DNA of 64,000 nucleotides, from NCBI GenBank assembly GCA_050179755.1, contig JBFXEV010000001.1, forward strand, positions 457,994 through 521,993, read 5' to 3'. The position numbers were made by a program, and so were the translations under genes. The stretch is from Candidatus Babeliales bacterium. Lineage in GTDB: Bacteria; Babelota; Babeliae; Babelales; JBFXEV01. Below are positions 10,792 through 47,497 of this stretch, one piece after another. The stretch's first letter is position 1. Every line of letters begins with the position of its first letter. The notes beneath the pieces were generated by a model. It was not told where the DNA came from. It made no database searches and saw only the letters and a list, made by a program, of their open reading frames with translations.

Positions 10792-12243
10792 GTGTTTAAA
10801 AAATACTCTCAGCTTAGCTTTTTAATCATCTTCTTGTCTACGCAATTAACTTATAACATGGATCAGGCACCACTCAACAAACCGCAAACGCTTGGCCAAA
10901 AACTCACAGCACTAACGCTTAGTGCACGTGAATGCAAGCGACAGCAAGCAGCATTAGCAGCACAGCAGCCAAAAACACTCTATGAGTATTTTGGCATGAC
11001 ACAGCTTGCAAGCGCCTCACGCGATGTAAAAGCACTCGTTGCAAAAGCACTTATTGGGAATGGTGGTTGGTGGTGGTTAAAACGACAAAGAATATATGAT
11101 GATCTTTCGGGGAAAATAGCATTCAGTGCAGACGGCAGACTATTTGCAATAGTTCACTACAACGTTGTAGATATATGCAATCTAACTTGCAACGAATCTG
11201 ACATTATATACTTAACTCATAAAGAGCCCGTTACTGCATTTGCATTTCACCCAACCAGCAGATCAATAGCTACAATAGAATCAAACATATGCACTATGTG
11301 GCATTGTACAGGCAAATTAATAAGTACGTTTAATACTGCCTGGCAGCATTCTTCACATATAGCATTTCATCCTACAAAAAATATAATCGCCATTGCAACG
11401 GCTTGCACCGTTTATTTATATGACTATACAGGTAAACGAATGCGAAAGATAAAACATACTACTTATGTTCAAGGAATTGATTTTAATGAAGATGGCGTCC
11501 TTGGCACTACGCCATGGGTTGGAGAGTCTCGTTTATGGAACGATGAGGGCAAACAAATACAAGCGTTGCCACATCGCGGGTTTAATAGTGCAATTGCATT
11601 ACACCCTAATAACAACATAATTGCCACAGCAGAATTAAACAGGGTACTTCTCTGGAATATGCAAGGAGAACAAACATGCACGTTGTTGCATAATGGTCGC
11701 ATTAACCGCGTTAAATTTAATAGTCAAAAAATGCACGTAGGAACCGCGTCATCAGATAAAACTGCTTGTTTATGGAATTTTCGTGGTACAAAGTTAAGAA
11801 CTTTTTATCATCTTAATCCGGTGCGTGGTATAGCGTTTCATCCTTGCGGCACGCTATTTGCAACTGCTGCGACAAAAAATACTGTATGCCTGTGGCAACA
11901 ACACGAACAACCCACATTAGAGCAAGTTTTATTACGGCAATTAATTAAAAACTGGGTGCTAACTTGCATTGCACAAAGAAAAAAGCCTCATTTTCCTTGC
12001 ACAAGCGCAGCAGAAGTGCCAACATGGATGGCTGTTCAATTTAATATACAAAAAGACGAATTAGAGCGCATATGGCAATCAATGAACGAGAGACTACAAA
12101 ACGCGATTGCTTATACGCTGAAAGGGCGCGCGCACCAGATTAGCGCATTATGCAAGCTGTATGAAGACCAAGACACAAAGCGTCAAATCATGAAACCATA
12201 TAACCCTACAGAACCAGTTCCTTTAGAAACGCTTGATTTATAA
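10792..12243 (+). CDS. Secreted WD40-repeat protein (tandem paralog 2)
   Basis: AFHP, TASSDKTACLWN repeats; shared QTLGQKL and PTLEQVLLRQ blocks. Confidence 0.9.
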   Translation: MFKKYSQLSFLIIFLSTQLTYNMDQAPLNKPQTLGQKLTALTLSARECKRQQAALAAQQPKTLYEYFGMTQLASASRDVKALVAKALIGNGGWWWLKRQRIYDDLSGKIAFSADGRLFAIVHYNVVDICNLTCNESDIIYLTHKEPVTAFAFHPTSRSIATIESNICTMWHCTGKLISTFNTAWQHSSHIAFHPTKNIIAIATACTVYLYDYTGKRMRKIKHTTYVQGIDFNEDGVLGTTPWVGESRLWNDEGKQIQALPHRGFNSAIALHPNNNIIATAELNRVLLWNMQGEQTCTLLHNGRINRVKFNSQKMHVGTASSDKTACLWNFRGTKLRTFYHLNPVRGIAFHPCGTLFATAATKNTVCLWQQHEQPTLEQVLLRQLIKNWVLTCIAQRKKPHFPCTSAAEVPTWMAVQFNIQKDELERIWQSMNERLQNAIAYTLKGRAHQISALCKLYEDQDTKRQIMKPYNPTEPVPLETLDL

Positions 12244-12345
12244 CAGCCTAACTAAACTCAAACAAAAATATCTATTGCTCTCACTATCTCTTTGCTATTA
12301 AACTAAGAGTAGTCTCCATAAAAATTGATCTATGATATGGTAACA

Positions 12346-13656
12346 ATGCTAAAAAAATATCAATTTCCAATTTTTTTATTGTACCTTCTATATGCTCCCA
12401 TACTATTTTCAATGGATGTAACTAATTTGGCAATAGCTAAATCTGCCACTAACCCACAAACACTCTATGAATTTTTTGGCATACCACCCACCTTCCCACG
12501 CGACTTGCAACCATTGCTTACAAAAGAAATAATTGGCGAAGGTGGCTGGTGGTATAAGGTTAAAAAATTGAAAATACCTTGCGATGAGAGCGTATGTTCT
12601 GTGCGCTTTTTTGCCGATTATGGGCTGGCCGTATTAACCAATAATCCGGTTAATTTCGAACGCAAAAGATATATTGCTTCCCTATCGCAATTAGACGCTA
12701 CACAAGTTGAGGAATCTGACAAATTTATGGCCGTAGAAGCAATGGATTGTAATTCACAGATTCCAAAAGTAGTTCTTGCTGATGGTGAAGGTAACGTAAT
12801 TGCATTGGATGAACAGTATCAGCCGCATATATTTATAGATGACATAAGAGAACGAGTCACGTCAATTGCGCTACATCCCGTTTTGCCGATAATTAGTATG
12901 GTAGCAGGGCAAAACCGCGCATCATTATGGGATTTCACGGCAAAAAAATTACTCATTACGCTCAATGCCAAAAAAATAACATGTGATTCAGAGCGCACCT
13001 GCATTGGTACATTACAAGGCACTAAAAAAGCATATTTACATAACTTTAACGGCGACAAAGTTGTTTCATTAAAACATGCTGATCATGTGCATGATCTAAC
13101 ATTCCACCCAACGCAAAGAATGGTTGCAACTGCCTCACAAGACAACACAGCTTGTTTGTGGAATTTTAAAGGTGAAAAGTTACATACACTTACGCACCCT
13201 TGGCATGTCTACCAAGCAAAATTTAATCATATAGGCACACTACTTGCCACCAGAGCAGATTCTTCTATCTATTTATGGAATTGCGAAGGCCAAAAACTAC
13301 GCACACTCAGCCATGCGCTACCTGTCTTAGATATAACATTGCATCAACAATTTGCACTCATTGCAAGTGTAACCAGAAAAAAACGTGTACATCTCTGGGC
13401 ATGGCATACCGATCCAACACTGCAGCAAGTTTTACTGCGGCAAGTTCTTAAAAATTGGCTACATTCGTTTATAGGTCGTTCTACATTCATTGATTTTAAA
13501 TGTACGTCAGAAGCGGGCATGCCACAATGGATGGCTACAGAATTTAATTTACAAGAAAAAGAACTGCAAGAGACTTGGCAATCAATGCCGCCAGAACTCT
13601 CGGCTGCAATATTTACTACCATTGCAAAGCGCATAGCTTATAGAAACCTGCTCTAA
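12346..13656 (+). CDS. Secreted WD40-repeat protein (tandem paralog 3)
   Basis: ATASQDNTACLWN; signal LFS-MD; closest to paralog 1. Confidence 0.9.
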   Translation: MLKKYQFPIFLLYLLYAPILFSMDVTNLAIAKSATNPQTLYEFFGIPPTFPRDLQPLLTKEIIGEGGWWYKVKKLKIPCDESVCSVRFFADYGLAVLTNNPVNFERKRYIASLSQLDATQVEESDKFMAVEAMDCNSQIPKVVLADGEGNVIALDEQYQPHIFIDDIRERVTSIALHPVLPIISMVAGQNRASLWDFTAKKLLITLNAKKITCDSERTCIGTLQGTKKAYLHNFNGDKVVSLKHADHVHDLTFHPTQRMVATASQDNTACLWNFKGEKLHTLTHPWHVYQAKFNHIGTLLATRADSSIYLWNCEGQKLRTLSHALPVLDITLHQQFALIASVTRKKRVHLWAWHTDPTLQQVLLRQVLKNWLHSFIGRSTFIDFKCTSEAGMPQWMATEFNLQEKELQETWQSMPPELSAAIFTTIAKRIAYRNLL

Positions 13657-13731
13657 ATATCTATTGCCCAAAACAGTATATTCATATTAAACTAGAAGCA
13701 ACAAAAAAACATATTAACTAAGGTAGATCAT

Positions 13732-15288
13732 ATGCTTAAAAAATACACTCAACTTAGCTTTTTAATCATTTTATTGTCTACACAATGTATTTATAGCATG
13801 GATCATGCAGCAACAGCTCCTGCCTCATCACAAACACTTGGTCAAAAACTCACTGCAATAACGCATGCTGCTCGAGCATCAAAAAGAACTCTCTGTGAAT
13901 CTGCCGGCATATCACAAAGGGAACGTACCCCCAATGAAAAGTCAGCACTAGCTCAAGCATTACTTGGCAAAAAACGTTGGTGGTACGAAACAACACGATT
14001 AGAGCACAGCGATTCTCCGCGCAAAATTAATTTTAATGCCTCAGGCACACGCATTGCGGCAGTAATAGACATCTCTGGCGATGATACAGACGATGAAACA
14101 CCTTCACCTCTTTGTGCATATCAGGGTTTGTCCTGGAACTTGGAAACAGAACAATTCAAACGAACTCAACCTCTGCAAGCAATGGGCCTTAACTCATCAG
14201 ATTTGCAGCAGGCAAACGCTCACGTGGTTATTGTAGATGATACTAACATATGCGTATTTGATAATGAGGGCATACTCTCTGCTGTAATGCCGCTTGTATA
14301 TGACAGTACAATCCATATAGTTGATCCGGATGAAACTATTGTGTTAAAGAATGAATGTCATAAAAAAGTCTGTGATGTTACCTTATATCCAAAACAACAC
14401 CTAGTAAGCCTAACCTTAAAAAAGGTAGGTGCTAGTTTATGGGATTATGCAAGCGGTAAAATGATCTTACATTTGCCCGGCGCGCATAAAATAGCATGTG
14501 ACCCCAAAGGCACTCTTATTGCAAGCATAGAAGATAATGCAAATCGCACGCGTGCAGCATATATACGCGATTACAATGGCACACTGCTGCATGCATTACA
14601 ACAATCTCCCGTGCATGGTGTAGATCGTAACGTATGGGACGTAGCTTTTAACCCTCACCAAAATATGATAGCCACTGCATATTCTGAGGGCGCGTATTTA
14701 TGGAATTATAAGGGTGAATTATTACGCACGTTAGTGCATTCAGCAGAGCCTCTTACGCACGTACTGTATGTAACCTTTAACCCCCAAGGTACCTTGTTAT
14801 GCACCTCAGCCGCGGATGGAACTGTGTGCTTATGGCACTGCCACCTAGGCGATAAATTGCATACGTTCTATAACGATTTAAGTCTCTGTGCTCCAGCATT
14901 TGCCCCGCAAGGGCATACGATCGCCACTGTATCTGGTGCCTATGTGCGTTTATGGCAACAATATGAACAACCCACGCTTGAGCAAGTTTTACTCTATAAA
15001 GTAATTCAACAATGGCTAATATCAGATCAAGCTGAAAAAGAGGCTACAAAATTACAACAAAATCCAGATATAGATCTACCAGCATGGCTTGCCGCTCATT
15101 GCAATTTGCATGAACATGAAGTGCGCCGCACATGGCACACACTGCCTGATAAAGTGCGTAAATCTCTTTTTATGACCATAACTGATCTGGCTGGATTTGG
15201 AAAAAAAAGTATGTATCAAGAAGTTAAGGACGCTGAAACGAGGAAGTGGCTAGAGTTCCTTTTTAAAATAGATGCGGATGATGATTAA
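13732..15288 (+). CDS. Secreted WD40-repeat protein (tandem paralog 4)
   Basis: VAFNP, TSAADGTVCLW; signal peptide nearly identical to paralog 2. Confidence 0.9.
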   Translation: MLKKYTQLSFLIILLSTQCIYSMDHAATAPASSQTLGQKLTAITHAARASKRTLCESAGISQRERTPNEKSALAQALLGKKRWWYETTRLEHSDSPRKINFNASGTRIAAVIDISGDDTDDETPSPLCAYQGLSWNLETEQFKRTQPLQAMGLNSSDLQQANAHVVIVDDTNICVFDNEGILSAVMPLVYDSTIHIVDPDETIVLKNECHKKVCDVTLYPKQHLVSLTLKKVGASLWDYASGKMILHLPGAHKIACDPKGTLIASIEDNANRTRAAYIRDYNGTLLHALQQSPVHGVDRNVWDVAFNPHQNMIATAYSEGAYLWNYKGELLRTLVHSAEPLTHVLYVTFNPQGTLLCTSAADGTVCLWHCHLGDKLHTFYNDLSLCAPAFAPQGHTIATVSGAYVRLWQQYEQPTLEQVLLYKVIQQWLISDQAEKEATKLQQNPDIDLPAWLAAHCNLHEHEVRRTWHTLPDKVRKSLFMTITDLAGFGKKSMYQEVKDAETRKWLEFLFKIDADDD

Positions 15289-28861: not shown

Positions 28862-29188
28862 TTACTTATATCCTTTGAAAAGCTCTTGTGGCTCTTTTCC
28901 TATTAAAGCAAAAAGATGAGCCAAACTTGAAAGCGTTAAATTTGCTTCTCCTCTTTGTATTTTTGCAACATGCGTTGGGCTGGAATCTAAGCGACGGACC
29001 AACTCATTAAAGCCAATGTTGTTTTTCTCCATATAATCGGTTAAAGCATCTGAAATAAGATTTTGAATAAACCTCAAAATCGCAACTTCTCGTTTCGCTT
29101 GCCGCGTTATTTGAGCTATTTCTTTCTTATTAAGTCGCTTTTCTAAATATTTCTCAAAATTGGTTTTTTTCATTATCATTCTCCTCAC
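28862..29188 (-). CDS. XRE/HTH antitoxin (HigA-like)
   Basis: ELVRRLDSSPTHVAKIQRGEANLTLSSL HTH; directly downstream of a RelE-type gene. Confidence 0.8.
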   Translation of the reverse strand: MRRMIMKKTNFEKYLEKRLNKKEIAQITRQAKREVAILRFIQNLISDALTDYMEKNNIGFNELVRRLDSSPTHVAKIQRGEANLTLSSLAHLFALIGKEPQELFKGYK

Positions 29189-29523
29189 ACTTCTAGCAAA
29201 CGATCTCTTGCTATCCGAATATCTCTTTCTTGACTACTTTTATCTCCTGCTGCAAGCACAATTATAATGCAGTTCCCTTGAAAGCCATAATACATTCTAT
29301 AACCAAATTTATACTCTCTTAACTCAAAAAGACCTTGGCCTAACGCCTTACTATGCGGCAATCTTAATGTGTTACCTGCAAAACCAAGCATACGCAGCTC
29401 TTTCGAGATAGCTTTAAATTGCTCTTTAGTTAATTTATCAAGCCATTTTTCAATGGGGCTTTGACTACCAGGAGTCTCCCAAAATTTTACCTGCCATTTC
29501 TTCACTCTATACCTTCGCATCAA
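29185..29523 (-). CDS. RelE/HigB (Gp49-like) toxin
   Basis: SPIEKWLDKL..GNTLRLPHSKALGQGLFELR..YRMYYGF..IIVLAAGDKSSQERDI. Confidence 0.88.
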   Translation of the reverse strand: MMRRYRVKKWQVKFWETPGSQSPIEKWLDKLTKEQFKAISKELRMLGFAGNTLRLPHSKALGQGLFELREYKFGYRMYYGFQGNCIIIVLAAGDKSSQERDIRIARDRLLEV

Positions 29524-29833: not shown

Positions 29834-29856
29834 AGCGACGGCAAATGGAGGATCTC

Positions 29857-30381
29857 ATGAAAAATAAATCAATTTTAATGCTCTCTTTTTTAATACTCCC
29901 ATTGTCCCAAAATGCTGCGTGCTCCCATGCAAAACAGAGTGTGGTGCGTATAACAAACCGCGAAGCATCACTCTTTGACCCAGAACGGTTAGGCCATTTT
30001 GTTGATGCATTGTTTGCATTTTATGAGCAAGATTATACAACACAACTTGAGATTAATGCTATTAAAGCAACCGCTCTTCATAATGCGCGTAAGCAATACC
30101 AATACATTCAAAGACAGGGGTGGAAAATATGCGTCTGGCCACAAGATCTGTTAGAAGATTATCTTGCCGATGCTCTAGCACAACATGCTCGCCAATGCTA
30201 TGAGCACAAAATCAGGATGTATAAACCCTCTCATTATGTTGATAGAGCAGATGAGGTGGAAACAAGCTTTAAAGAGCAAGCTCGTGAAAAGATTAACTCG
30301 GGCAGGTATGGTTGCCTTCGTTTTTTTGTGGGTGAAAGCCTTGAAAAACAAATAGCGCCTTTTTGCACTATAGTTAAGTAA
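29857..30381 (+). CDS. Secreted hypothetical protein (paralog of the next gene's middle domain)
   Basis: GGAGG RBS + MKNKSILMLS, identical to the next gene; TQLEINAIK and FFVGESLE blocks. Confidence 0.8.
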   Translation: MKNKSILMLSFLILPLSQNAACSHAKQSVVRITNREASLFDPERLGHFVDALFAFYEQDYTTQLEINAIKATALHNARKQYQYIQRQGWKICVWPQDLLEDYLADALAQHARQCYEHKIRMYKPSHYVDRADEVETSFKEQAREKINSGRYGCLRFFVGESLEKQIAPFCTIVK

Positions 30382-30415
30382 ATATTGAAAACTAAATCTT
30401 AGTTTGGAGGATCTC

Positions 30416-31552
30416 ATGAAAAACAAATCTATATTAATGCTTTCTTTATGTGTACTCACCTTTGCAACGCACAACATGCAGGCACGCGATAATAGTTGGT
30501 TTGAATACTTTGTAAGTATTTTTTGGAATACTAATAAAGATGCGGAACAGCCAAAACTAGAACCCAGCCTACGCCAAGGCGCCCAGCCTTCGCATAAAGC
30601 TACGGCGGATATAACCGGCGGTCAGGCCGGCCAACAAAATATGCCAAAGCCGTCGGCACCCCCGCTTGAACAACCGCAACAATACAATGCAAAAGCACCT
30701 ACTGCTAAATCAGCGGGCATCACAAATGCTGAGTATAATACTGTGCGGTATCAGATTGAATCTATTATTGATGGGTTATTTGCGACAAAAGAACAAGAAC
30801 ATGCCACTCAGCTTGAAATTCAAGCGATAAAAGATAAAACGTTGCATTGTATTGGTGAGCGCATACGCAACATTGCCACGTTGCCAGAGTTTCGCCAGGC
30901 AGCAAATCACTATCTGACTGAATATCTTACAAAAACTATTGCTTATAATGCACGGCTTTTGTATCAACAAAAAGCAAATAAGCTTGCTGTGCAATTAGTA
31001 CAGAGTCAGCCACTTGCCGAGCATTTAGAAAAAGAAATCAAAACACACGCACTCAAAGCAATCAACTTAAATGAGCCCGGTGTGCTTGCATTCTTTGTAG
31101 GCAAAGCCTTGGATGAACGCGTTGCAGCACAAATAAAACGGGACTTCGCTCCAATCCTTCGACAAGCTCAGGATGAGCGACAAGTAAATAAAGCAAGCAA
31201 ACAGCCTCAATCAATCGTCCAACACCCTAAGCCTAGTGCGCCGCCGGCAGAGCATCATACAGCGATGCGCCCTGAAATCTATGAAGTGTATGTGCATTCA
31301 AATGCAGCACGGTATGAAGAATCTATAGCAAGAATACAACAAGGCAAAGCATTTCGTGATGAGCCTGAATGTGTTATGTGCTTTGAAGAATTTGGCGGCT
31401 CAAGAAAGCGCGTAACGCTTGTATGCGGGCATACTATATGCCCTGCGTGCTTGCAACTTCATTTGCAAAAAAATGATACGTGCCCAACTTGCGCTGAACC
31501 AATTGCGCCAGATGAGTTCCCGGCAGCATATTTACATAAATACAACAATTAA
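30416..31552 (+). CDS. Secreted RING-finger (C3HC4) protein with two PSAP motifs; putative E3 ligase effector
   Basis: CVMC..CGHTICPAC..CPTC; PKPSAPP occurs twice. Confidence 0.88.
   Translation: MKNKSILMLSLCVLTFATHNMQARDNSWFEYFVSIFWNTNKDAEQPKLEPSLRQGAQPSHKATADITGGQAGQQNMPKPSAPPLEQPQQYNAKAPTAKSAGITNAEYNTVRYQIESIIDGLFATKEQEHATQLEIQAIKDKTLHCIGERIRNIATLPEFRQAANHYLTEYLTKTIAYNARLLYQQKANKLAVQLVQSQPLAEHLEKEIKTHALKAINLNEPGVLAFFVGKALDERVAAQIKRDFAPILRQAQDERQVNKASKQPQSIVQHPKPSAPPAEHHTAMRPEIYEVYVHSNAARYEESIARIQQGKAFRDEPECVMCFEEFGGSRKRVTLVCGHTICPACLQLHLQKNDTCPTCAEPIAPDEFPAAYLHKYNN
30567..30628. repeat. Nested REP/RPE-like palindromes inside the RING gene
   Basis: GCCTACGCCAAGGC[..GCCTTCGCATAAAGCTACGGCGGAT..]CCGGCGGTCAGGCC. 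Confidence 0.7.
31146..31180. repeat. REP/RPE-like palindrome (CCTTCGACAAGCTCAGGATGAGCG) inside the RING gene
   Basis: TCGCTC..ATCCT-TCGACAAGCTC-AGGAT-GAGCGA hairpin, encoding ILRQAQDER. Confidence 0.75.
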
Positions 31553-31586
31553 CTTACATTAATGGGCGCATTTCAAGAACAATAAG

Positions 31587-32645
31587 TTACTGCGATGCGC
31601 CCATTAACCTTTTTACATTCTCGGCAATGCCCTCACGAAAATTCTCTTCACACTTACTGGGATCTAGCAAGTCTAATAGCTTAAAATAGTTAGTGGAATC
31701 CTTCATATTTGCATGTAATTCTGGATGCAATGGACTTAATAATAGAAGCGCCGTATTACGCACAACAACATCATCAACCACTTCTGATTCCATTTTTTTT
31801 GAGCTACACAAATACACGTCTTCTGGGTATACGTAGGTCATGAAGTACCGTATAAGCCCTACATTATTGTCACTTGGTTTTACAATGTTGCATAATGGGC
31901 TTATTCTTGCCACATCATCCCCCATTAGCTGTTCAAACAACGTAAATTTTAAACGCGCACCATGCTCCATCAATAGTTTAATAAGGTCTAAAAGCATTTC
32001 CTTCTCATGTTCAAAAACCATTTCCACCCCTTGGTAATGATCAACTGCATAGTGAAGCGGCGTTAAGCACTGCATAGAGGGCAAATTGGGCAAAGCATTA
32101 TGGTCTAATAATAATTTAACCATAGCATAACGAGTCTTTATACAAGGAAACCCTAGCGCAGTTAACAATGCCGTTGCACCCTGTTCTGTATAACAATTAG
32201 GATTTGCGCGATGAAATAAAGCAAGCGTAGCATTATTTATTTCACCGTTTTTAAGCGCAGCTAATAATTGACGATCAACCATGCGATCGGTTGATCTTAA
32301 ATGTGCCGACGGCGCAGCTGTTAATGATCGCACCAATGTACAAATATCTTCTCGCGTGCGAGGATCATGTATACTATCTATGCCAGCTATAACTTTATAA
32401 TGAGTCAATGCAAAATCATCAAAAAATTGCCGGTGCTTGACAATATCTAGTCTATTAGCTTTTACAAGACGCTTACCTTCTTGATTATTTTTACTTTGCT
32501 GTGCAGTAAATCTTTGAATGACTTTTAAGTCTTTAAAAAACTGTTCATCAATAATTGTTTGCTCAGAATCTACAAAAAAACGCAACATGCCAATTATAAT
32601 GTTAACGTTAAAGAGCACATAACAGAGAAGAACTCTCTTCCACAC
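31587..32645 (-). CDS. Secreted ankyrin-repeat protein
   Basis: GATALLTA, VKLLLDHNALPN, LTPLHYAV, LLMEHGA. Confidence 0.85.
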   Translation of the reverse strand: MWKRVLLCYVLFNVNIIIGMLRFFVDSEQTIIDEQFFKDLKVIQRFTAQQSKNNQEGKRLVKANRLDIVKHRQFFDDFALTHYKVIAGIDSIHDPRTREDICTLVRSLTAAPSAHLRSTDRMVDRQLLAALKNGEINNATLALFHRANPNCYTEQGATALLTALGFPCIKTRYAMVKLLLDHNALPNLPSMQCLTPLHYAVDHYQGVEMVFEHEKEMLLDLIKLLMEHGARLKFTLFEQLMGDDVARISPLCNIVKPSDNNVGLIRYFMTYVYPEDVYLCSSKKMESEVVDDVVVRNTALLLLSPLHPELHANMKDSTNYFKLLDLLDPSKCEENFREGIAENVKRLMGASQ

Positions 32646-32671: not shown

Positions 32672-33064
32672 TTATTCAGTCACCGTAACCCTTTGCCCTG
32701 CACTATGGAGCATATGTAACGCAAAATCAGAAATTAAATAGCCGCCAATAAACATGCTTGTATACGGAGCATTGGCAATACTATCCCGCTTAAAAATCAA
32801 AGCCCACAGGGCAAGCGCACTAAAAAAAGGGCAATCAGCTACGGTTTTTAACACACTACTGCCAATGCGCGATAGTAACCCATCGTTATAAACTTTTACT
32901 GCAGATTCATAACCAAGTAGTCGTTCAATTTCTACCGATTGCCCTGGCTCAAGCTTTACCTGGCATATTTCCGTATCATCCGTATGCACATTAACAGTTA
33001 CCGTTTCTTCTTGAGCATGCGCTAAGCACATAACGCATAAAAGTAATCCAAATAATTTTTTCAT
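32672..33064 (-). CDS. Membrane/secreted hypothetical protein
   Basis: Signal AHA-QE; two hydrophobic segments. Confidence 0.7.
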   Translation of the reverse strand: MKKLFGLLLCVMCLAHAQEETVTVNVHTDDTEICQVKLEPGQSVEIERLLGYESAVKVYNDGLLSRIGSSVLKTVADCPFFSALALWALIFKRDSIANAPYTSMFIGGYLISDFALHMLHSAGQRVTVTE

Positions 33065-33169
33065 GGCCAACGCCCTTTCATTTTTAATTTTAATATACAC
33101 ACGTTCTTTTGATTGAGTATACTAAAGAGAAAAATTGAACACTAATGCCCCAAAAATAAAGGAAAGTAT

Positions 33170-39038: not shown

Positions 39039-40193
39039 ATGAAACATCCATTTTGGTTGATCAATAGTATTTTACTTATTACGCTCTTGCTTGGTGTAAG
39101 CTTGATGCTATTATTTCGTCCAAAAAAACTTGCACTTGAATCATTCGAACCAGAAAAAGAAGAAATAAAACTACCGCAACAAAGTTTACCTAAAATTGAT
39201 CTTGCAAAGATTTATACTAACGACATTTTTAATACCTATAGCGCACCCACAACACCAACGGAACAACAAGCCGCTGAAATTCCTGCCGTGCCACAACCGC
39301 CACGCCCTGAGCCTATTAAACCTGCGGTTAAACCAACACCAAAATTACTCGAACCACTCAAAGTTACGCTTAAAGGGATCATGCTCACTGGCAATGATGC
39401 TACCAATATGGCAGTCATTGAAAATACACAAACAAAGCAATCAAAAAACTATCGCGTTGGTGATAAGATAGAAGACGCTCAACTCATACGCATTATGAAA
39501 AACAAAATAAGCATAGTACGCTCAAATGGCCAACAAGAAACGCTCTATGTTAATAAACGAGATGCACAGCTTGATCAATTAGTGCAGCCGCAGGGTGATT
39601 GGTCAACTATTATCGCCAAAGTGCAAGAAGGTGCCTATACGATTGATCCAAATGCATTCATTATCAAAGTGCGTAACTTGGCGCAATTTATAGACTTGCT
39701 TAATCTTACTACGGTGTATAAATCAGGCAAAAGCATTGGCGTACGCGTTGGCAAAGTGCAAAGCAATGGACTTGCAACAGCGCTTGGGCTCCAGATGGGT
39801 GACATTATCACGCAAGTAAATGAAATGCCTGCCGACACCACAGATAATCGTTATGCAATTTATCAAACACTCACCAAGTTAAAACTAGATGCTACCATTA
39901 AGTTGCACTTACAACGCAATGGCATTGATCAAACAATAAGTTATACACTTAAAGAAATGGACATTTTGGAAGAAGAGCCACAAAAATCTACTATGCAAGA
40001 TGTGGTATATCCTGAAAAAACTATGGCTGATGTGCAAGCAGAGCGGCAACGCATTATGCGCGAACAATATCGCTTTGCGCCAACTGCTCAAGAACTAGAC
40101 AGAGAAAAGAAACGTACTATGCTTGATACCGCCCCCCAATCAACGCCACGTAAGCGCAATGTACTCACCGAGTTGGTGGAATCACCACATTAA
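39039..40193 (+). CDS. gspC: Type II secretion protein C with PDZ-like domain
   Basis: N-terminal TM, Pro-rich linker, LKGI..AVI..YRVGDKI HR domain, LGLQMGDIITQVN PDZ; upstream of a secretin. Confidence 0.85.
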   Translation: MKHPFWLINSILLITLLLGVSLMLLFRPKKLALESFEPEKEEIKLPQQSLPKIDLAKIYTNDIFNTYSAPTTPTEQQAAEIPAVPQPPRPEPIKPAVKPTPKLLEPLKVTLKGIMLTGNDATNMAVIENTQTKQSKNYRVGDKIEDAQLIRIMKNKISIVRSNGQQETLYVNKRDAQLDQLVQPQGDWSTIIAKVQEGAYTIDPNAFIIKVRNLAQFIDLLNLTTVYKSGKSIGVRVGKVQSNGLATALGLQMGDIITQVNEMPADTTDNRYAIYQTLTKLKLDATIKLHLQRNGIDQTISYTLKEMDILEEEPQKSTMQDVVYPEKTMADVQAERQRIMREQYRFAPTAQELDREKKRTMLDTAPQSTPRKRNVLTELVESPH

Positions 40194-40208
40194 ACGAATG
40201 AGCCAAAC

Positions 40209-42761
40209 ATGAGAACAGAGTTTACCGCTAAATTATACCATATCATACTATGCTCGCTTATTGCCCTCCCGTTGCATGCTGTCATAAAAGAAGAAGCCAC
40301 CGCTGAACAAAAAGTTCCTTTAAAGCGTCAAGGCATCATGGCAAATATGGCTGATCAACAAGATGCAGATATTCCACTTGAAGGCCCTGGCCTTGCAACC
40401 ATAGAAGAGCGCGGACCAGGGCAAGCAAATCGTGTGCAACAATCGGTAGAGGAATTTACCCAGCCACCTGTGCGGCCCGATACTGCCGTGGATGATGAAC
40501 AGAATAAAGTAGAAGTAAATTTTGAAGAAACCGATTTATCAAATATCACCAGCTGGATCTCAAAATTATTTGGTGTTTCGTTTATATCAAACGATGCAAT
40601 TAATCCACCACCAAAGACGGGTGGGCTTATTGGAAACAATAAATTAACCTTTAAATCTCACATACCTCTTACCAAGCGGCAAGTTTGGGATTTATTTGTT
40701 ATCTTCTTGGACCTTTCTGGACTTGCAGTACGTTCATCTTCGATACGATCTAATTTTTATCAAGTAGCCCCCGTCTCGCGCCAGTCGCCAGACCCTATTA
40801 CCAACCAACCATTGCCTTCATTTGTAAACGTCGATTGGCATGCATTGCCTGATAACGATCAGTATGTGCGTTATGTTTACTTTTTACAAAACATGCGCTT
40901 GCAAGCAATCATGGATGTGCTCAATGATTTAAAAAGCAAAAATGCGCAAATAGCTCAATTGCCCTATCTTGATGCATTTATGATCACGGATAAAGCGTAT
41001 AATATTCGTACGCTTATGCAGGTAGTTGAAGAGCTTGATGGTGTAGCATTGCCTGAAGCAATGTCCGTTTTAAAACTAAAAAATGCTGATGCAGAAGAGG
41101 TGGGTCAACTTTACAAATCGCTCACATCTGGCGATCAGCAAGAGCGGCGAATTGCATCATTCTTGGGCCAACGTAACGTGCCTACTAAAAAGTATTTTCC
41201 TGAACATGTAAAAATAATTGTAGAAAAACGCACAAACTCCTTAATTATTTTAGGCGACCGTAAAAGTATTCGCAAAATAGAAAATTTTATTTCAAATTAC
41301 GTTGATACAGAATTAAAACAACCCTATTCACCGCTCTATGTCTATGACTTGCAATATACTAATGCAAAAGATATGGCACAAATACTTGATGAAGTAGTAA
41401 ACAGCTATAATAAAGATTCGGTGGCTCGTGAATATGGCAGCGTACGCCGGGGCGAAAAATATTTACAACCGATGGTGTTTGAGCCAGAGCAAGAAGGTAA
41501 TCGCTTGCTCATTAAAGGTGAAAAGGAAGATTGGCTTATGGTGCGCCGTATCATAGAACAACTTGACGTACCGCAACCACAAATTGCTATTGAAGTGCTG
41601 GTGGTCAACGTAACAGGTGATGATAATAAAGAGCTTGGCGTACAAATCAGAAATAAAACACCCGAGCAAATTAACCCTAATATTGATTGGCAATCTTCTG
41701 GTTTGCCTGATGGCGTTGGCAACTTTAATCAACCAGTAGTGCGACCTGCAGGAAGCGTTAATCCTGGTAGCATTGCAGCAGACTTAATCACGCTTGCACA
41801 ATCACAAACAGTAGGTTCAACACTTGTTTCTATTGGAACAGCCGCAACCGGTGGCGTGTGGGCATTATTAAAAATGCTTCAAACACACACGCGTACCGAA
41901 ATTTTATCAAACCCTTACTTGGTAACTACCAATAATTACGAAGCACTCATTTCACTTGGTGAAACACGACGTGTAGTATCATCTACCGTTGTTTCTGGTA
42001 GCACGAGTGAAAGCTCGCAAACTGATAAAACAGCGGCACTCACCGTGCGCGTAAAACCACAAATTAATCGTGAAGGCATCATTAATCTTGATATATTCTT
42101 TGAACTAAGTGCATTTACCGCTGCTGCAAACAGCTCAGAAGCTGCAAACACTGTTGAACATAAATCGCGCACCAATGCCAACATTGCCGATGGTGAAGTG
42201 CTTGCCTTTGGTGGTTTTATGCGTAGTGAAGTGGATGAATCTGTTGCCAAAACGCCGTTGCTTGGTGATGTGCCCGTGCTTGGTTGGTTCTTTAAAAACA
42301 AAACCAAACGAAAAACAGTTAATAATGTTATGGTGTTTATTTCACCGCACATTATTGAGCCTCGTCTGCAAGGGGGTTTAAGCTCGTATTCAGAACATAA
42401 AGTAAATACGGCGCGAGAAACATTATGCTATGGTGAACGAGCAAACCAAAAGAGAGACCCTATCCATAGATGGTTCTTTAAAGATAACGTTCGCTTTGAA
42501 CAAGATAAAATTGATAATTTTATTTTAGAAAAAGAAGAAGCTGGTATTATTTCTGCAAAAGAAATAATTGAGGCCGGCGAATCTGAGCCATTGCTCACCA
42601 ATATTCCCGATGAAACGGCACCACCTTCTATTACACCTGATGCGCCAAGACCAGTACTTGCCCAGAATAAAGAACCGCGCACGCGTAAGCAAAAAAAGAA
42701 ATCTATTTTTACTACGTTTGAACCAGATAAAACCACTAAACCTACGGGAGTAACTGCATGA
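40209..42761 (+). CDS. gspD: Type II secretion secretin
   Basis: N0/N domains (VNFEETD, RTNSLII), LDVPQPQIAIEVLV, secretin core KTPLLGDVPVLGWFFK..VFISPHII. Confidence 0.92.
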   Translation: MRTEFTAKLYHIILCSLIALPLHAVIKEEATAEQKVPLKRQGIMANMADQQDADIPLEGPGLATIEERGPGQANRVQQSVEEFTQPPVRPDTAVDDEQNKVEVNFEETDLSNITSWISKLFGVSFISNDAINPPPKTGGLIGNNKLTFKSHIPLTKRQVWDLFVIFLDLSGLAVRSSSIRSNFYQVAPVSRQSPDPITNQPLPSFVNVDWHALPDNDQYVRYVYFLQNMRLQAIMDVLNDLKSKNAQIAQLPYLDAFMITDKAYNIRTLMQVVEELDGVALPEAMSVLKLKNADAEEVGQLYKSLTSGDQQERRIASFLGQRNVPTKKYFPEHVKIIVEKRTNSLIILGDRKSIRKIENFISNYVDTELKQPYSPLYVYDLQYTNAKDMAQILDEVVNSYNKDSVAREYGSVRRGEKYLQPMVFEPEQEGNRLLIKGEKEDWLMVRRIIEQLDVPQPQIAIEVLVVNVTGDDNKELGVQIRNKTPEQINPNIDWQSSGLPDGVGNFNQPVVRPAGSVNPGSIAADLITLAQSQTVGSTLVSIGTAATGGVWALLKMLQTHTRTEILSNPYLVTTNNYEALISLGETRRVVSSTVVSGSTSESSQTDKTAALTVRVKPQINREGIINLDIFFELSAFTAAANSSEAANTVEHKSRTNANIADGEVLAFGGFMRSEVDESVAKTPLLGDVPVLGWFFKNKTKRKTVNNVMVFISPHIIEPRLQGGLSSYSEHKVNTARETLCYGERANQKRDPIHRWFFKDNVRFEQDKIDNFILEKEEAGIISAKEIIEAGESEPLLTNIPDETAPPSITPDAPRPVLAQNKEPRTRKQKKKSIFTTFEPDKTTKPTGVTA

Positions 42762-44386
42762 TCAAAGATCTCTTTATTCCCCAAAAAATAGATGGGTATT
42801 ATATTTTATCCCAAGACATCCTTGGCGTAGTTATAAATAAAACGCACGTGCGTGCAGCGCTGGTTACTGCACAGGCAAAAACATTAACCATTAAAGATTT
42901 TTTTGAAGAACCGCTCAGTACAAACAATGAACTTTCTTATCAAGAACGCGTTGCTAATGCTCTTACTGCTCTACGTGCAAAAGTAGGTACAAACGTTACT
43001 ATACGATCTTCGCTTTCAAGTGCTCAGGTCACCTTTAAACAATTAAAGCTGCCATTTGCTGATCCTGAAAAAATAAAAATGATCTTACCTTTTGAAATTG
43101 CACCCCAACTGCCTTTTGCAATCGAAAACGCCATTATTGATTTTATAGTAGTAAGCGTGGACGAAGAGCGCAAAGAAAGCACTGTCATGGTTGCAGCAAT
43201 TTTAAAAGAACATGTAGCACAGCATATGGCGCTCTTTGCAGCAGCACAAATTGAACCAGATCAGATTACTATTGATCTTTTTGATCTTTATGGCTTATAT
43301 CTTATGGTTCCTGCATATCGAGCACGCAAAGGCGTAACCGTTTTACTTGAACTACAAGCAAGCTCCACACGCCTGATGTACCTGATTGATAACAAACTTG
43401 AGCGTATCAGAACTATTGGCCAGGGCATTGCCCATCTTGCCAAAATTGTAGGGCAAGAATTAAATATTGAAAATGGCGATGCGCTAGAACAGGTTTTGCG
43501 CTTTGGCACCGGGTCTCATGCCCAAAGCAATTATACAACTGCCATGCATCAGGCTGTAGGTTCTTTATGGCAAGCAGTACAGTTTACGCTCAGCTCATTT
43601 GCCGATCAAACAGGCGCTGCACGACCTATTGACACCATTTTACTCGTGGGAGCGTTTGCAACTCTGCCCGGCATTGCAGAATATATCACCGAGCGTAGTG
43701 GCATACCCTGCATGCCATTTGACATACAACTGTTGTTTGAAAATCCACATATAATACAAGGCACAAAAGCAATAACGCCCGATCAAATTGCAAGCTTAAG
43801 CACAGCGCTGCCAAAACCAACCACTGAAAATTTGAACATGCTGCAAGGTGAATTTGCGCCGCAAACCACCAGTTTGTTTGCCAAACAAATAATTTTACTT
43901 GCGGCATTACTATTGCTTTTACTTGGCGGATTACTTGGCATTAGTATATGGCAAACAAGCGCATTACGCTCACAAGAACGCAGAGCAAGCAAAGAAGCTC
44001 TTATTTATTTGCAAGAACTGGCACTCGTCGACGAAGACGTAATGAATTTAACACAAGCAGTAGAAGATGCGAAACTGAAACTCAATAAGCAAGAAGATCA
44101 ATGGTTCCCGTTTTCGCGCCAAGCACGTACCTCACCGCTTAATGTGTTGCAAGCTTTAAGTGCTGCTATGAATCGCGAAAGCCTTGGCCTGCTATTAAAG
44201 CGCCTCGTGATTGCCGAAGATCATGTGACAATTGAAGGTTCAGTAAAAAACTGGGAAGCTCTCACTACACTTCAAAACGAACTTGAAAAATCAAAATTAT
44301 TTGCCTATATACCAAAAGAAGAATTTCAAGATTTTTCCACCTTTAATGTAAAATTGTTATTAAAAAAGAAAAAGGGCGCACTATGA
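42758..44386 (+). CDS. gspL: GspL/PilM-PilN-like assembly platform protein
   Basis: Actin-like cytoplasmic domain (LKLPF..KI..ILPFEI..LPF), one TM, periplasmic ferredoxin-like domain. Confidence 0.8.
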   Translation: MIKDLFIPQKIDGYYILSQDILGVVINKTHVRAALVTAQAKTLTIKDFFEEPLSTNNELSYQERVANALTALRAKVGTNVTIRSSLSSAQVTFKQLKLPFADPEKIKMILPFEIAPQLPFAIENAIIDFIVVSVDEERKESTVMVAAILKEHVAQHMALFAAAQIEPDQITIDLFDLYGLYLMVPAYRARKGVTVLLELQASSTRLMYLIDNKLERIRTIGQGIAHLAKIVGQELNIENGDALEQVLRFGTGSHAQSNYTTAMHQAVGSLWQAVQFTLSSFADQTGAARPIDTILLVGAFATLPGIAEYITERSGIPCMPFDIQLLFENPHIIQGTKAITPDQIASLSTALPKPTTENLNMLQGEFAPQTTSLFAKQIILLAALLLLLLGGLLGISIWQTSALRSQERRASKEALIYLQELALVDEDVMNLTQAVEDAKLKLNKQEDQWFPFSRQARTSPLNVLQALSAAMNRESLGLLLKRLVIAEDHVTIEGSVKNWEALTTLQNELEKSKLFAYIPKEEFQDFSTFNVKLLLKKKKGAL

Positions 44387-44958
44387 AAATATTCGAGCCT
44401 TTAGAGCAGCGTATTGCGCAACTTGATGCCACCACGTTCCGTAATTATCTTATTGCTTTTTTTGCAGTAATTACGCTCATTATAGGGCTTATCTTATGGC
44501 GCTATTATGCTTCGGTACGGTCGCTCCATAAAAATATACGGCGCATTAATGAAGAGCGTGAAGAAGTAAAAGAAATAACCATACGCAGTGAACGGGTGAA
44601 AGGACAACAACGTGTTGTAGAGACTCTTATTAATAAAGATCCTAATTTCAAGATTCTTGGTTATTTTGATAGAGTGCTTGCACAGCATAACTTGATGAAC
44701 AACCTAGTGCGCAGGCCTGATACACGACCAACTGACCTTGATACGGGGCATACTGAAGTTACACTCTTTGCAAGTTTAACTAACTTAAACATGGAATCTA
44801 TTGCTAAACTTCTGGACACCTTAGAGCGTAATGAACGCATAAACACAAAAGAAATTGAAATAACCAAACCTCTTTCTGGGCGCACGGTTAACTTGAGCCT
44901 TACTATTGCAACGCTTGAGCCTGCAAGCCAAGCTGCCGCAGAAACTTCGGAGGAATAA
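44383..44958 (+). CDS. gspM: GspM-like protein
   Basis: TM + coiled coil + small alpha/beta domain, translationally coupled to gspL. Confidence 0.65.
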   Translation: MKIFEPLEQRIAQLDATTFRNYLIAFFAVITLIIGLILWRYYASVRSLHKNIRRINEEREEVKEITIRSERVKGQQRVVETLINKDPNFKILGYFDRVLAQHNLMNNLVRRPDTRPTDLDTGHTEVTLFASLTNLNMESIAKLLDTLERNERINTKEIEITKPLSGRTVNLSLTIATLEPASQAAAETSEE

Positions 44959-44962
44959 TACT

Positions 44963-47497
44963 ATGAACTACATTTCACGCTTCTGTATACTGCTTTTTAG
45001 TTTCTTTTTTTTAGTACCGCGCACATGCGCAGTCGTCCAAGAAGATGCGACCAACACCACGGTAACTGATCGCGTTGCAAAGAAAGAAAAGGATCTTGAT
45101 CTTAATGCGGAATTTATTCGCGTAAATTATACTGATAAACCGGTCTCAGAAGCAGTTAATGAAGTGGCAGCTCTTCTTGGTATTAATATTATGATGCCGC
45201 AAGATGGCAAGGGGCTTGATAAAATATTTTATGAATCAAAACTAACGTATCACTTGCCTGAAAAGATCTCGCTTAAAGAACTCTGGGAATTATTGCTCGT
45301 CTCGCTCCATACCTTAGGTTATATGACACACCAACAAGGCGATTTGCTTGCAATAACTCTGTATCCTAATGCAAAAGACGCTGCGCGTCAGCCGCTCACA
45401 CTTTATCATGATGTGCCGCCAAGCGATTTGCCTAATACTAATCAGATTATTAGATATATTTACCATTTGCGCAATCTAAGTTTGGATATCAGCAAAGATG
45501 GTATTAAAAACATTCTTGAAGGCGTGCTTTCAAAAAACCCTAGCTATCAATTTCTTACGCAAACTAATGCGATTGTGATCACCGATCGTGCTGCTAATAT
45601 TAAAAATGCTATGACTATTATTGCAGAACTTGATGAAGGTGGCTTACGTGATGCGATTGAAGTAATCCCACTCTATTATACGTCTGCAGCATTAGTAGAT
45701 GATTTATTTAACAAACAATTATTTCTTGATCAATCAAAAAAAGGTGCAAGTTCAAAACCAGAGGAAAAACAAATACCTTATTTTCCTCAAAACACTAAAG
45801 TTGCCAAACTAGAACGAAGCAACTCTATTGTTATCATGGGCACCACGCGCTCAATTGATATTGTAAAAGACTTTATTGTTAAATACATTGACCGACCGCT
45901 TGAAACTGGTGATTCAATGCTCCATGTCTATGATTTACAATATTTACGAGCAACAGATTTTGCAAAAGTATTACAAAATATTGTTAAAGGCAGCCAAAAA
46001 CAACAAACAAAAACAGCAGAAGCGCAAGGGCCACAACAATATTTTGAAGATGTGGTAATTATTGCAGAAATTTCTACCAAGGAAGCAGCGCTTACGCCTG
46101 AAACGCAAATTACACAAGTTATTAAAGATGCAGCATCTAGCCAAAAAGATGCCACCATTCAAATTGGTGGTAATAGACTTATTATTGCTGCTCGCAAAAA
46201 TGACTGGGTGCGTATCAAGAAATTAATTGATGAACTTGATAAACCGCAATTGCAAGTGGCTATAGAAGTTCTTATTCTTGATTTAACCGTGGACCACACT
46301 ATGTTTTTGGGAGGTCAAACGCGTAATAAATCAGGATTTAATAACAGTACGTCAGAAGCTATTAACTGGCAATCTGCGCAACTTGCTCAACCAGTTCTTA
46401 AACGCGATGCTAATGGCAACTTGCTTCCTGATGCTCTTATGGCAAATTTATTACAACTGGTTTCCACCACCACCGGATCGGCGATTAATATTGCATCCAA
46501 CTCAGAGCCTGGCTCGTTTATTATATCATTTAAAGATAAAGATAATCTTGGCGTATGGAGCATTCTCCAAATGTTAAACACGTTCTTTAAGACTAACATT
46601 CTTGCGCAGCCATTTTTAGTACTGCAAAATCACAAGCCTGGCTGGGTGTTTACGCAAGAAAATAGATATTTGCAATCAGAAACACAAGGTGGTACTGGTC
46701 AGATTGCTCGTGTAAACTTTGAAGACGTGAGTGCTGGTATTACGCTTGATGTGTTACCACATATTAGTGAAACTGGCAACGTGAATATGCAAATTATTAT
46801 TCAAATAGGTAGATTCCTTACCGCAGCCGGTACCAATAGCCCAAATAACCGCTCAGATCGCGTGATAAGAACTAATGCCAACGTGGGCAATGGTGAAGTG
46901 CTCGTGCTTGGCGGCCTTACGCGTGATGAAGAAGATGTAACTATTACCGAATCACCACTTTTAGGGCAAGTACCCGTGCTTGGATGGTTCTTTAAATCAA
47001 AGCGTAAACAAAAAGTTAAAAACCATCTTATGGTGTTAATTAGCCCTACCATTGTAAAACCATACGTAGAAGGCGGCATGGACGTATTTACTGCGGGTAA
47101 AATGAGTGACGCGCGCGACTCTATTACCGAAGATCTGGCCTTTATCAATAAACGCGATCCTATTACACGATGGTTCTTTAAACCAAATCTTGATTGCCCG
47201 TATCAGGGTCTTGATGATTATCTTGATCAATCATATTATGATGAAGATGTAACGCCAGAAACAGAACTGGGTGCAAGCGCGTTAGAAGCGCCATCCAAAA
47301 TTCTTAAATCAGTAGCAGAACGCTCAAGAACAATTGATTTTGATGCGCCAAATAGTGCACCGCTTGCAACAAACAGCGTGGCCAAACCGGTAACTCAAGC
47401 ACAACCTAGAGAGAATCAACTTAAACAATTGATGCAAAACGAAGATAATCCATTACTCGTCAAGCAACGTAAAGACCAAGCGGTCCTCAATACGTAA
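44963..47497 (+). CDS. gspD: Second type II secretion secretin
   Basis: GGAGG RBS before MNYISRF; LDKPQLQVAIEV, PLLGQVPVLGWFFK; collinear with the first gspD. Confidence 0.9.
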   Translation: MNYISRFCILLFSFFFLVPRTCAVVQEDATNTTVTDRVAKKEKDLDLNAEFIRVNYTDKPVSEAVNEVAALLGINIMMPQDGKGLDKIFYESKLTYHLPEKISLKELWELLLVSLHTLGYMTHQQGDLLAITLYPNAKDAARQPLTLYHDVPPSDLPNTNQIIRYIYHLRNLSLDISKDGIKNILEGVLSKNPSYQFLTQTNAIVITDRAANIKNAMTIIAELDEGGLRDAIEVIPLYYTSAALVDDLFNKQLFLDQSKKGASSKPEEKQIPYFPQNTKVAKLERSNSIVIMGTTRSIDIVKDFIVKYIDRPLETGDSMLHVYDLQYLRATDFAKVLQNIVKGSQKQQTKTAEAQGPQQYFEDVVIIAEISTKEAALTPETQITQVIKDAASSQKDATIQIGGNRLIIAARKNDWVRIKKLIDELDKPQLQVAIEVLILDLTVDHTMFLGGQTRNKSGFNNSTSEAINWQSAQLAQPVLKRDANGNLLPDALMANLLQLVSTTTGSAINIASNSEPGSFIISFKDKDNLGVWSILQMLNTFFKTNILAQPFLVLQNHKPGWVFTQENRYLQSETQGGTGQIARVNFEDVSAGITLDVLPHISETGNVNMQIIIQIGRFLTAAGTNSPNNRSDRVIRTNANVGNGEVLVLGGLTRDEEDVTITESPLLGQVPVLGWFFKSKRKQKVKNHLMVLISPTIVKPYVEGGMDVFTAGKMSDARDSITEDLAFINKRDPITRWFFKPNLDCPYQGLDDYLDQSYYDEDVTPETELGASALEAPSKILKSVAERSRTIDFDAPNSAPLATNSVAKPVTQAQPRENQLKQLMQNEDNPLLVKQRKDQAVLNT

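Follow-up and report, generated by a model that had tools for sequence, protein, structure and literature searches.

Two conserved PSAP motifs in a putatively exported RING finger protein of a Babeliales bacterium: a possible mimic of Tsg101-directed ubiquitin ligases

The stretch of DNA analysed here, referred to below as the window, comprises 64,000 nucleotides from the assembled genome of a Candidatus Babeliales bacterium (GCA_050179755.1, contig JBFXEV010000001.1, positions 457,994 to 521,993 of the forward strand). At 30416..31552 on its plus strand lies a gene for a protein in which a C-terminal RING finger is preceded by two copies of the tetrapeptide PSAP. The reading frame is open for 378 codons from an ATG at 30416, with its stop codon inside that span, and its translation is identical to the stored protein P0001. 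This ATG is favoured over an in-frame TTG at 30404 because a GGAGGA box lies five bases upstream of it; the string GGAGGATCTCATGAAAAA, comprising box and start, is also found 5' of the upstream paralog gene described below. The features of the gene and its product are as follows.

30406..30411, plus strand: ribosome-binding-site-like GGAGGA, five bases 5' of ATG 30416
30416..31552, plus strand: coding sequence of the 378-residue RING protein, from the open reading frame
30416..30484, plus strand: signal-peptide-like N-terminus, residues 1-23, with MKNK, a hydrophobic core, and MQA followed by RD
30494..30529, plus strand: short aromatic-rich helix, residues 27-38 (SWFEYFVSIFWN), with conserved SW, from alignment A1 and the AlphaFold2 model
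30644..30670, plus strand: first motif PKPSAPPLE, residues 77-85, in disordered linker 1 (residues 41-100), from alignment and model
30725..31198, plus strand: helical domain, residues 104-261, a candidate orphan fold common to RING-less paralogs, from the model
31226..31252, plus strand: second motif PKPSAPPAE, residues 271-279, in linker 2, 46 residues before the first RING cysteine
31277..31549, plus strand: RING module, residues 288-378, made up of the strand IYEVYV, a helix at 300-308, the C3HC4 RING and the tail DEFPAAYL
31370-31492, plus strand: the C3HC4 RING proper, residues 319-359, from regular-expression spacing and Pfam

The PSAP cores themselves occupy residues 79-82 (nucleotides 30650-30661, context MPKPSAPPLEQ) and residues 273-276 (nucleotides 31232-31243, context HPKPSAPPAEH). 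An earlier reading of this DNA, here called the initial annotation, had placed them in Pro/Gln-rich disordered linkers flanking a helical domain, and composition and modelling both bear this out. Linker 1 contains 15% proline and 15% glutamine, and linker 2 (residues 262-287) 23% and 12%, compared with only 3% proline in the helical domain. In the AlphaFold2 model of the whole protein, which was built on a 33-sequence alignment and has a mean predicted local distance difference test score (pLDDT) of 80.5, both copies fall in low-confidence coil (means over 10-residue blocks of 51, 52 and 57) lying between well-modelled domains, among them the helices of residues 104-261 at pLDDT above 90. When each linker was shuffled singly, P[ST]AP arose in 2.5% of trials for linker 1 and 1.0% for linker 2. 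Across the window as a whole, the 90 stop-to-stop frames of at least 100 residues (24,123 residues) hold only three instances of P[ST]AP, two of them being the PSAP copies of the RING protein. The serine codons of the two copies, TCG and AGT, belong to separate codon boxes, and therefore the copies do not represent a recent duplication of DNA and would have been kept by selection on the peptide. The Pfam family Gag_p6 gives a weak match (E 0.083) lying exactly on residues 271-280, the second motif.

A word-indexed search for homologs yielded nine relatives, eight of them close (42-47% identity) and the ninth distant, and a second search of this kind with the family profile yielded 11 proteins, of which one, P0157, was a new member near-identical to P0009. 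An exhaustive phmmer search of 1.84 billion cluster representatives gave 193 matches at E ≤ 0.001, 19 of them at E ≤ 1e-10; among the matches listed, RING-only matches make up most of the 150. From 156 proteins, 33 were picked by eye as members of the family (alignment A2), on the basis either of a match extending N-terminal of the RING or of equal length together with the same type of N-terminus, and the other 123 RING matches were kept for comparison. An architecture common to the 33 consists of a signal-peptide-like N-terminus, often SW, the helical domain, the proline motif, E-x-Y, the RING and a tail of the form [D/E]FPxxYL; E-x-Y, which is nearly invariant, lies inside a stretch 'EIYE[I/V]Y'.

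The proline motif is strongly over-represented in this family. P[ST]AP occurs 28 times in the 33 proteins where 0.31 instances would be expected, and none of 2000 per-protein shuffles produced as many. It is carried by 19 of the 33 family members versus 9 of the 123 other RING matches, and the extended form PSAPP by 18 of 33 versus 3 of 123. Conservation of PSAP among homologs had been set beforehand as a check on the initial annotation, and it was found for both copies. The first core is identical in all nine of nine close relatives, while most of the surrounding linker positions are common to three of the nine or fewer; the second is kept in six of the eight proteins P0001 to P0008, the query being counted, with PVAAP in its place in P0006 and PVVAP in P0007. 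A PSAP aligned with the second copy is found again in relatives that are just 20-30% identical, and in 15 of the 33 members a PSAP lies 35-60 residues ahead of the first RING cysteine. Over the 28 instances the nine-residue consensus is PxPSAPP[L/A][E/D], with proline two residues before the core in 22, proline at +1 in 24, leucine or alanine at +2 in 22, and glutamate or aspartate at +3 in 21. The P[ST]AP motif is not the product of chance and is under selection across the family.

In the maximum-likelihood tree, which has 34 rows, one clade of 10 (support 96/91) is marked by the N-terminal PSAP copy, and the pre-RING PSAP is present on both sides of the midpoint root, so placed that about five changes are needed. 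This distribution fits an old pre-RING motif that may have been lost several times; repeated gain at the same place is also possible, the root being arbitrary. An ALIX-type YPxnL motif next to PSAP was considered for the window protein and rejected: the sequence there is YVHS, the motif shows no enrichment, and the model has a confident strand over this segment. YPx(1-3)L is found in 7 of the 33 family proteins versus 8 of the 123 other RING matches. In P0015, P0016, P0019 and P0025 the string YPNL, YPDL or YPKSGL follows the conserved EIYE[I/L]; it stands downstream of PSAP in P0015, P0016 and P0025, and P0019 is without PSAP. In these relatives the YPxnL-like string is probably structural.

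That the protein carries a RING-HC (C3HC4) finger is established by ligands, profile and fold, and the initial annotation had correctly recognised such a finger after the second linker. All eight ligands are present between residues 319 and 359 with the spacing C-x2-C-x14-C-x-H-x2-C-x2-C-x10-C-x2-C (by regular expression), and C319, C337, H339, C342, C356 and C359 are invariant across the 33 sequences. With the Pfam model zf-RING_2 the score is 35.3 bits, the cut-off being 27.3 (E 1.4e-8), and zf-RING_5 (30.7 against 27.9) and zf-C3HC4_3 (29.8 against 27) are also over their cut-offs, while Prok-RING_4 (PF14447), at 21.3 bits, falls under its cut-off of 27. The segment comprising residues 288-378 is modelled with pLDDT 88-97, and within it the conserved IYEVYV is confidently predicted as a strand belonging to the RING module (pLDDT 97) and not as an independent linear motif. 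When the whole model was compared with the PDB by Foldseek, only RING domains were returned, headed by RNF4 (3ng2_B; probability 1.00, 34% identity, root-mean-square deviation 2.0 A over 56 columns); the E value is only 0.039 because the whole 378-residue model was used as the query. In a profile search of the PDB the RNF4 RING also came first, at 7.8e-20, and in the profile alignment the [D/E]FPxxYL tail of the family pairs with the C-terminal tail of RNF4. The tail of RNF4 takes part in the RING dimer. Residues E290, Y292 and L373 are nearly invariant in alignment A2, and the module as a whole resembles active E3 ubiquitin ligase RINGs of the RNF4/TRIM32 type. RNF4, though the best match in both sequence and fold, has SUMO-interaction motifs and no PSAP, and the window copy differs from it in being without an arginine after the last zinc ligand.

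RINGs that activate a ubiquitin-charged E2 enzyme (E2~Ub) have a hydrophobic residue between the first and second ligands, proline after the seventh, and a basic linchpin after the eighth. The RING of the window protein contains CVMC and CPTC, and the residue after its last zinc ligand is Ala360 (nucleotides 31493-31495); this is the position that we take to be the 'linchpin' helping many RINGs to activate E2~Ub. One relative, P0012 (438 residues), has two complete modules of IYEIYP, RING and tail in tandem, an arrangement that would suit a RING active in dimeric form. P0059, P0157 and P0012 give sub-threshold Pfam matches to the plant XB3/XBAT31 RING (23-30 bits against a cut-off of 50). These are no evidence of descent, and it is a curiosity that XBAT35, which binds VPS23A through two PSAP motifs and is discussed below, belongs by name to the same plant XBAT group.

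The following further features of the window surround the gene.

29848..30381, plus strand: RING-less paralog in tandem with the RING gene, with a similar signal peptide and helical domain, and no PSAP or RING
31559..31607, no strand assigned: hairpin between the convergent RING and ankyrin genes, from fold energy compared with shuffles
31587..32645, minus strand: ankyrin-repeat protein, a conserved neighbour (Pfam Ank_2, 3.1e-7), 34% identical to its counterpart at the locus L001
39039..47497, plus strand: type II secretion / type IV pilus-like cluster (Pfam T2SSC, Secretin twice, PilM_2)

Modelled alone, the helical domain that separates the two motifs gave a pLDDT of 94.5 and a predicted template modelling score of 0.86. 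A fold search with it against the PDB found no match (best E 0.55, TM score at most 0.28), the PDB search with the whole model likewise gave no usable match for this domain, and a search of the predicted viral structures of BFVD was equally negative (best E 0.72). The ESM Atlas offered just generic helical bundles (TM score by query at most 0.56) and no feature match. The domain is 30% identical between the RING protein and its tandem paralog, and at L001, a locus in a metagenome-assembled genome (MAG), two RING-less paralogs (4672-5214 and 5229-5831) lie upstream of the RING gene. The occurrence of such paralogs in both places means that the helical domain would be an independent secreted module, and, on the evidence of its model, it is a candidate for a new fold.

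The N-terminus opens with two lysines (MKNK) and reaches a Kyte-Doolittle maximum of 2.68 over 10 residues at residue 6, and the putative cleavage site is MQA followed by RD, methionine at -3 being unusual. In close relatives an xQA/xRA site is aligned, with A/V/I/L-x-A there, and by the same hydropathy heuristic the N-terminus is signal-peptide-like in 32 of the 33 family members. On this heuristic reading the RING protein appears to bear a Sec-type signal peptide; to that extent the initial annotation's description of the protein as secreted stands, and it goes as far as that reading goes. There follows a short aromatic stretch, SWFEYFVSIFW (residues 27-37), whose S27 and W28 are invariant in alignment A1. 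The helix modelled over residues 28-38 is of modest confidence, with a mean hydrophobicity of 0.46 and a hydrophobic moment of 0.38, and it might conceivably be that the aromatic helix at residues 27-38 touches a membrane. An Inc-like bilobed membrane anchor was rejected, its two hydrophobic segments, of about 14 and 11 residues, being too short, as was a lipoprotein, there being no lipobox and no conserved cysteine.

A plausible export route is provided within the window by the cluster at 39039..47497, which encodes a GspC-like protein, two secretins of about 850 residues each and a PilM-like protein, with an unassigned 191-residue open reading frame between; the cluster is a candidate for the system that exports the RING protein. 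In Chromulinavorax, another member of the Dependentiae, signal peptides are reported on 44% of coding sequences and on 78% of ankyrin proteins, and a Sec system has been inferred and vesicles have been observed in this organism (relevant sections of PMC6561590). For Babela massiliensis, which grows in a vacuole, type II is reported to be the only secretion system found (PMC4378268).

A pattern scan of one genome per species located a full-length ortholog, P0007, 45% identical and with arginine after the last zinc ligand, in the Babeliales MAG OY970310.1. The window and L001, the locus in this MAG, have a common gene order: paralogs, RING gene, convergent ankyrin gene, small membrane protein, tpiA, secG, mlaE and mlaF. 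In a comparison of the two loci, TpiA shows 60% identity and the neighbouring ankyrin protein 34%. The small protein beside the ankyrin gene (142 residues at 32672-33100, minus strand, in the window; 130 residues at 8008-8400, minus strand, in L001) has a signal-peptide-like N-terminus and a hydrophobic C-terminal half, and belongs to no Pfam family. The hairpin at 31559..31607 has a perfect 14-bp stem and a folding energy of -24.8 kcal/mol (z -5.77; none of 200 shuffles was as stable), and is likely to be a bidirectional terminator. A promoter scan gave four sites compared with 4.8 in shuffled sequence, and thus no excess. Just upstream of the paralog and RING genes is a two-gene pair with a 4-base overlap (28862-29523, minus strand), encoding a 112-residue Gp49-like (DUF891) protein and a 108-residue protein with a weak match to a Cro/C1 helix-turn-helix (E 9.6e-4); from its sequence, the pair looks like a toxin-antitoxin module of the HigB/HigA type.

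According to Pfam the window holds seven ankyrin genes, five WD40 genes, one leucine-rich repeat (LRR) gene and the type II secretion system (T2SS)-like cluster already described. Four of the WD40 genes stand in tandem (9260-15288, plus strand; 479, 483, 443 and 518 residues) and the fifth (63170-64000, minus strand) runs to the window edge; they represent a eukaryote-like repeat family with local expansion. The gene content of the window matches published accounts of the Dependentiae, a group whose members live as obligate intracellular parasites in amoebae and flagellates, and judged from its sequence the genome is Babeliales-like (Dependentiae), in a group of intracellular parasites of protists.

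Several eukaryotic RING ligases have a design very like that of the window protein. TAL (also known as LRSAM1), which has a tandem PTAP, MGRN1, which has a single PSAP, and plant XBAT35, which has a pair of PSAP motifs, all bind TSG101/VPS23, part of the endosomal sorting machinery called ESCRT, through its ubiquitin E2 variant (UEV) domain, and ubiquitinate it (as summarised in passages of PMC9400068). Each, like the window protein, has a RING at its C-terminus together with one or two P[ST]AP motifs, and XBAT35 corresponds to it in having two PSAP copies. The comparison with MGRN1 and LRSAM1/TAL that had been drawn in the initial annotation is therefore apt, with XBAT35 as a third case. The signal peptide, the orphan helical domain and the bacterial genome context are the window protein's own. 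No homology to LRR-SAM, to the N-terminal domain of MGRN1 or to ankyrin repeats was detected outside the RING: the only families that Pfam finds are RING families, and the match to MGRN1 in the PDB profile search (E 2e-4) lies around the RING only. In the absence of homology outside the RING the protein is therefore not a member of the TAL, MGRN1 or XBAT families, and the likeness is one of design and not of descent.

Likenesses extend to viral and protozoan proteins. HIV-1 Gag p6 and Ebola VP40 resemble the window protein in that P[ST]AP is followed by proline and an acidic residue within a disordered segment (relevant part of PMC10159163). These two and arenavirus Z are structural proteins of budding virions, whereas the window protein would be exported from a bacterium. 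Arenavirus Z is small and myristoylated, and its late domain is C-terminal to its RING, while the motifs of the window protein are N-terminal to theirs. Z does, like the window protein, join a RING to a late domain of the PSAP/PTAP type (passage in PMC7561441). Toxoplasma gondii GRA14/RON, for its part, is secreted by an intracellular parasite and uses P[ST]AP to recruit host TSG101 at the vacuole (PMC10159163, in the section concerned). GRA14 is unlike the window protein in belonging to a eukaryotic parasite, in being a transmembrane dense-granule protein and in having no RING.

The bacterial RING/U-box effectors and ESCRT interactors embody the same principle, a eukaryote-like E3 or ESCRT binder being sent into the host. 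To our knowledge, the bacterial E3 effectors described so far are delivered through type III or type IV systems and have no late-domain motifs; the route proposed for the window protein, by contrast, is Sec/T2SS, and its RING is accompanied by P[ST]AP. NleG effectors are U-box E3s (as described in part of PMC2891834), and contacts with ESCRT are recorded for EsxG/EsxH and further bacterial factors (PMC10159163, Table 2), that table of the 2023 review giving the ESCRT-recruiting motif as 'N.I.' (not identified) for every bacterial entry. In Babela massiliensis 'a RING finger domain protein' is mentioned in a single line of PMC4378268 as a potential E3. Neither a bacterial P[ST]AP effector nor a PSAP-bearing RING protein in Dependentiae is described in the literature searched, a statement that holds for that literature only.

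It is tempting to suggest, by analogy and with a confidence that stops slightly short of even, that the RING protein is a Sec/T2SS-exported, host-directed effector which mimics the eukaryotic RING ligases directed at Tsg101/Vps23, namely TAL, MGRN1 and XBAT35. Under this proposal the protein would leave the bacterium by way of Sec followed by the type II-like system or outer-membrane vesicles, and would arrive in the host cytosol. There its PSAPP motifs, like viral late domains, would dock into the groove with which the UEV domain of host ESCRT-I (Vps23/Tsg101) binds P[ST]AP, and the RING would recruit host E2~ubiquitin, with consequent ubiquitination of host Vps23 or of its neighbours on endosomes or phagosomes. 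The parasite would thereby disable or redirect endosomal sorting and phagosome maturation, and the helical domain would probably supply a second contact, with substrate or with membrane. The suggestion of an effector of this kind is made because TAL, MGRN1 and XBAT35 reach and ubiquitinate TSG101/VPS23 by the same device. Docking to the UEV domain is proposed because P[ST]AP is an established ligand of TSG101-UEV, put to use by viruses and Toxoplasma, and because the bacterial consensus PSAPP[L/A][E/D] resembles TSG101-UEV ligands obtained by phage display. Those reported for the human domain, PD1 (PSAPPWE) and PD2 (PSAPPMP), have PSAPP followed by a hydrophobic residue, another published ligand is PTAPPEY, and positions +2/+3 are described as key for tight binding (bioRxiv 10.1101/2024.11.15.623737, in the portions dealing with these peptides). 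The flanks of the family motif resemble these ligands and may be compatible with tight UEV binding. The Vps23 of Amoebozoa has a UEV domain that overlays the human one (PMC8588831), and in Dictyostelium Tom1 binds Tsg101 (passage in PMC7952518).

A number of observations weigh against this proposal. All 19 carriers among the 33 family proteins have PSAP and none has PTAP, although either form is accepted by UEV domains. Evolution has been able to dispense with the motif: PSAP is absent from both positions in about half of the wider family (15 of the 34 rows of the tree), and the second copy has been lost in P0006, P0007 and P0010. The flank preferences invoked above are those of human TSG101. 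In the RING itself, Ala360 stands where 29 of the 32 relatives with a RING match have arginine (isoleucine is found in P0018 and glycine in P0032), and in view of this replacement the window ortholog may be a weak ligase, with reduced activation of E2~Ub. Finally, a Sec/T2SS substrate of a bacterium living in a vacuole, as Babela does, would be expected to land in the lumen of the vacuole and not in the cytosol, with the vacuolar membrane still to be crossed. The initial annotation had further placed the action of the protein at the vacuole or during exit, and nothing in the present analysis speaks for that; taken as a whole, its interpretation is partly supported.

The constant use of PSAP and never PTAP means that the reader of the motif could be some other proline-binding domain. 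An exported RING effector whose PxPSAPP[L/A][E/D] is read by something other than ESCRT-I, whether an SH3, WW, EVH1 or GYF domain, profilin, a host kinase or protease for which it is a site, or the bacterium's own export or processing machinery, is unlikely in our estimation, though it deserves serious attention. The frequent proline before the core (22 of 28) and at +1 (24 of 28) makes of the motif a longer PxPxxPP that many classes of domain could bind, and an xP pocket is common to SH3, WW, EVH1 and GYF domains (bioRxiv 10.1101/2024.11.15.623737, in the part comparing them). The sequence is nevertheless without the in-register basic residue of SH3 class I/II ligands, the tyrosine of PPxY or the aromatic-PPPP of EVH1 ligands; its conserved acidic residue at +3 and hydrophobic residue at +2 fit published UEV ligands; and P[ST]AP is exactly what three unrelated RING ligases of eukaryotes employ to engage the UEV domain. 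A different division of labour, in which PSAP recruits ESCRT-I for budding or repair and the RING does no more than mediate self-assembly or the binding of partners, so that the protein is an ESCRT adaptor and no enzyme, is improbable, if not negligibly so. It would accommodate Ala360 readily, and the aromatic N-terminal helix could then anchor the protein on a membrane. It also has precedents in arenavirus Z, a small RING protein with late domains of the PSAP/PTAP type that drives budding (PMC7561441, same passage), and in GRA14, whose P[ST]AP and YPXnL motifs are put to use at the parasitophorous vacuole (PMC10159163, same section). Set against this are the retention by the rest of the family of the arginine, of the CPxC proline and of the RNF4-like tail, which argues for selection for the handling of E2~Ub, the tandem RING modules of P0012, as expected of a RING that works as a dimer, and the lack of any transmembrane anchor apart from the signal peptide.

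That the protein has no action on a host at all, and instead belongs to the periplasm or envelope of the bacterium, its zinc-binding treble-clef domain and proline-rich linker having some structural or other bacterial role, seems very improbable. The Sec-type N-terminus is indeed the only demonstrable targeting feature, and prokaryotic RING-like families do exist, one of which, Prok-RING_4, gives a weak match. That match, however, is below its cut-off whereas the eukaryote-type RING models are above theirs, the gene stands among eukaryote-like ankyrin, WD40 and LRR genes, and in Dependentiae signal peptides are the rule on presumed effectors. Bacteria are not known to have an E2~Ub that such a RING could use.

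If the Tsg101/Vps23-directed effector is accepted as the preferred reading, a bolder proposal can be built on it, which is possible yet rather doubtful: that these proteins are the founding family of bacterial 'late-domain' effectors, Sec/T2SS-exported RING ligases of Dependentiae that would use PxPSAPP[L/A][E/D] to bind ESCRT-I of the protist host at its UEV domain, imitate TAL, MGRN1 and XBAT35, ubiquitinate and disable Vps23 and block the maturation of phagosomes and multivesicular bodies, with a previously unseen helical fold, found also in stand-alone secreted paralogs, adding a second contact with the host. RING/U-box effectors in bacteria, and late-domain mimicry by viruses and Toxoplasma, are each already known, and the new part is their combination in a bacterium. 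Mimicry of this kind, in which P[ST]AP gives access to ESCRT-I, is a hallmark of enveloped viruses that has been extended to Toxoplasma, and two conserved PSAP motifs on an exported bacterial RING protein would be a first for a bacterium if UEV binding proves true. It would then follow that bacteria have found the same late-domain solution as viruses, that the RING-plus-PSAP design by which animals and plants regulate Tsg101/Vps23 can be copied by a pathogen, and that short motifs may serve as a guide to effector function in lineages that are uncultured and without type III or type IV secretion. For the Dependentiae, an ancient phylum of protist parasites, their biology would gain a concrete and testable host target.

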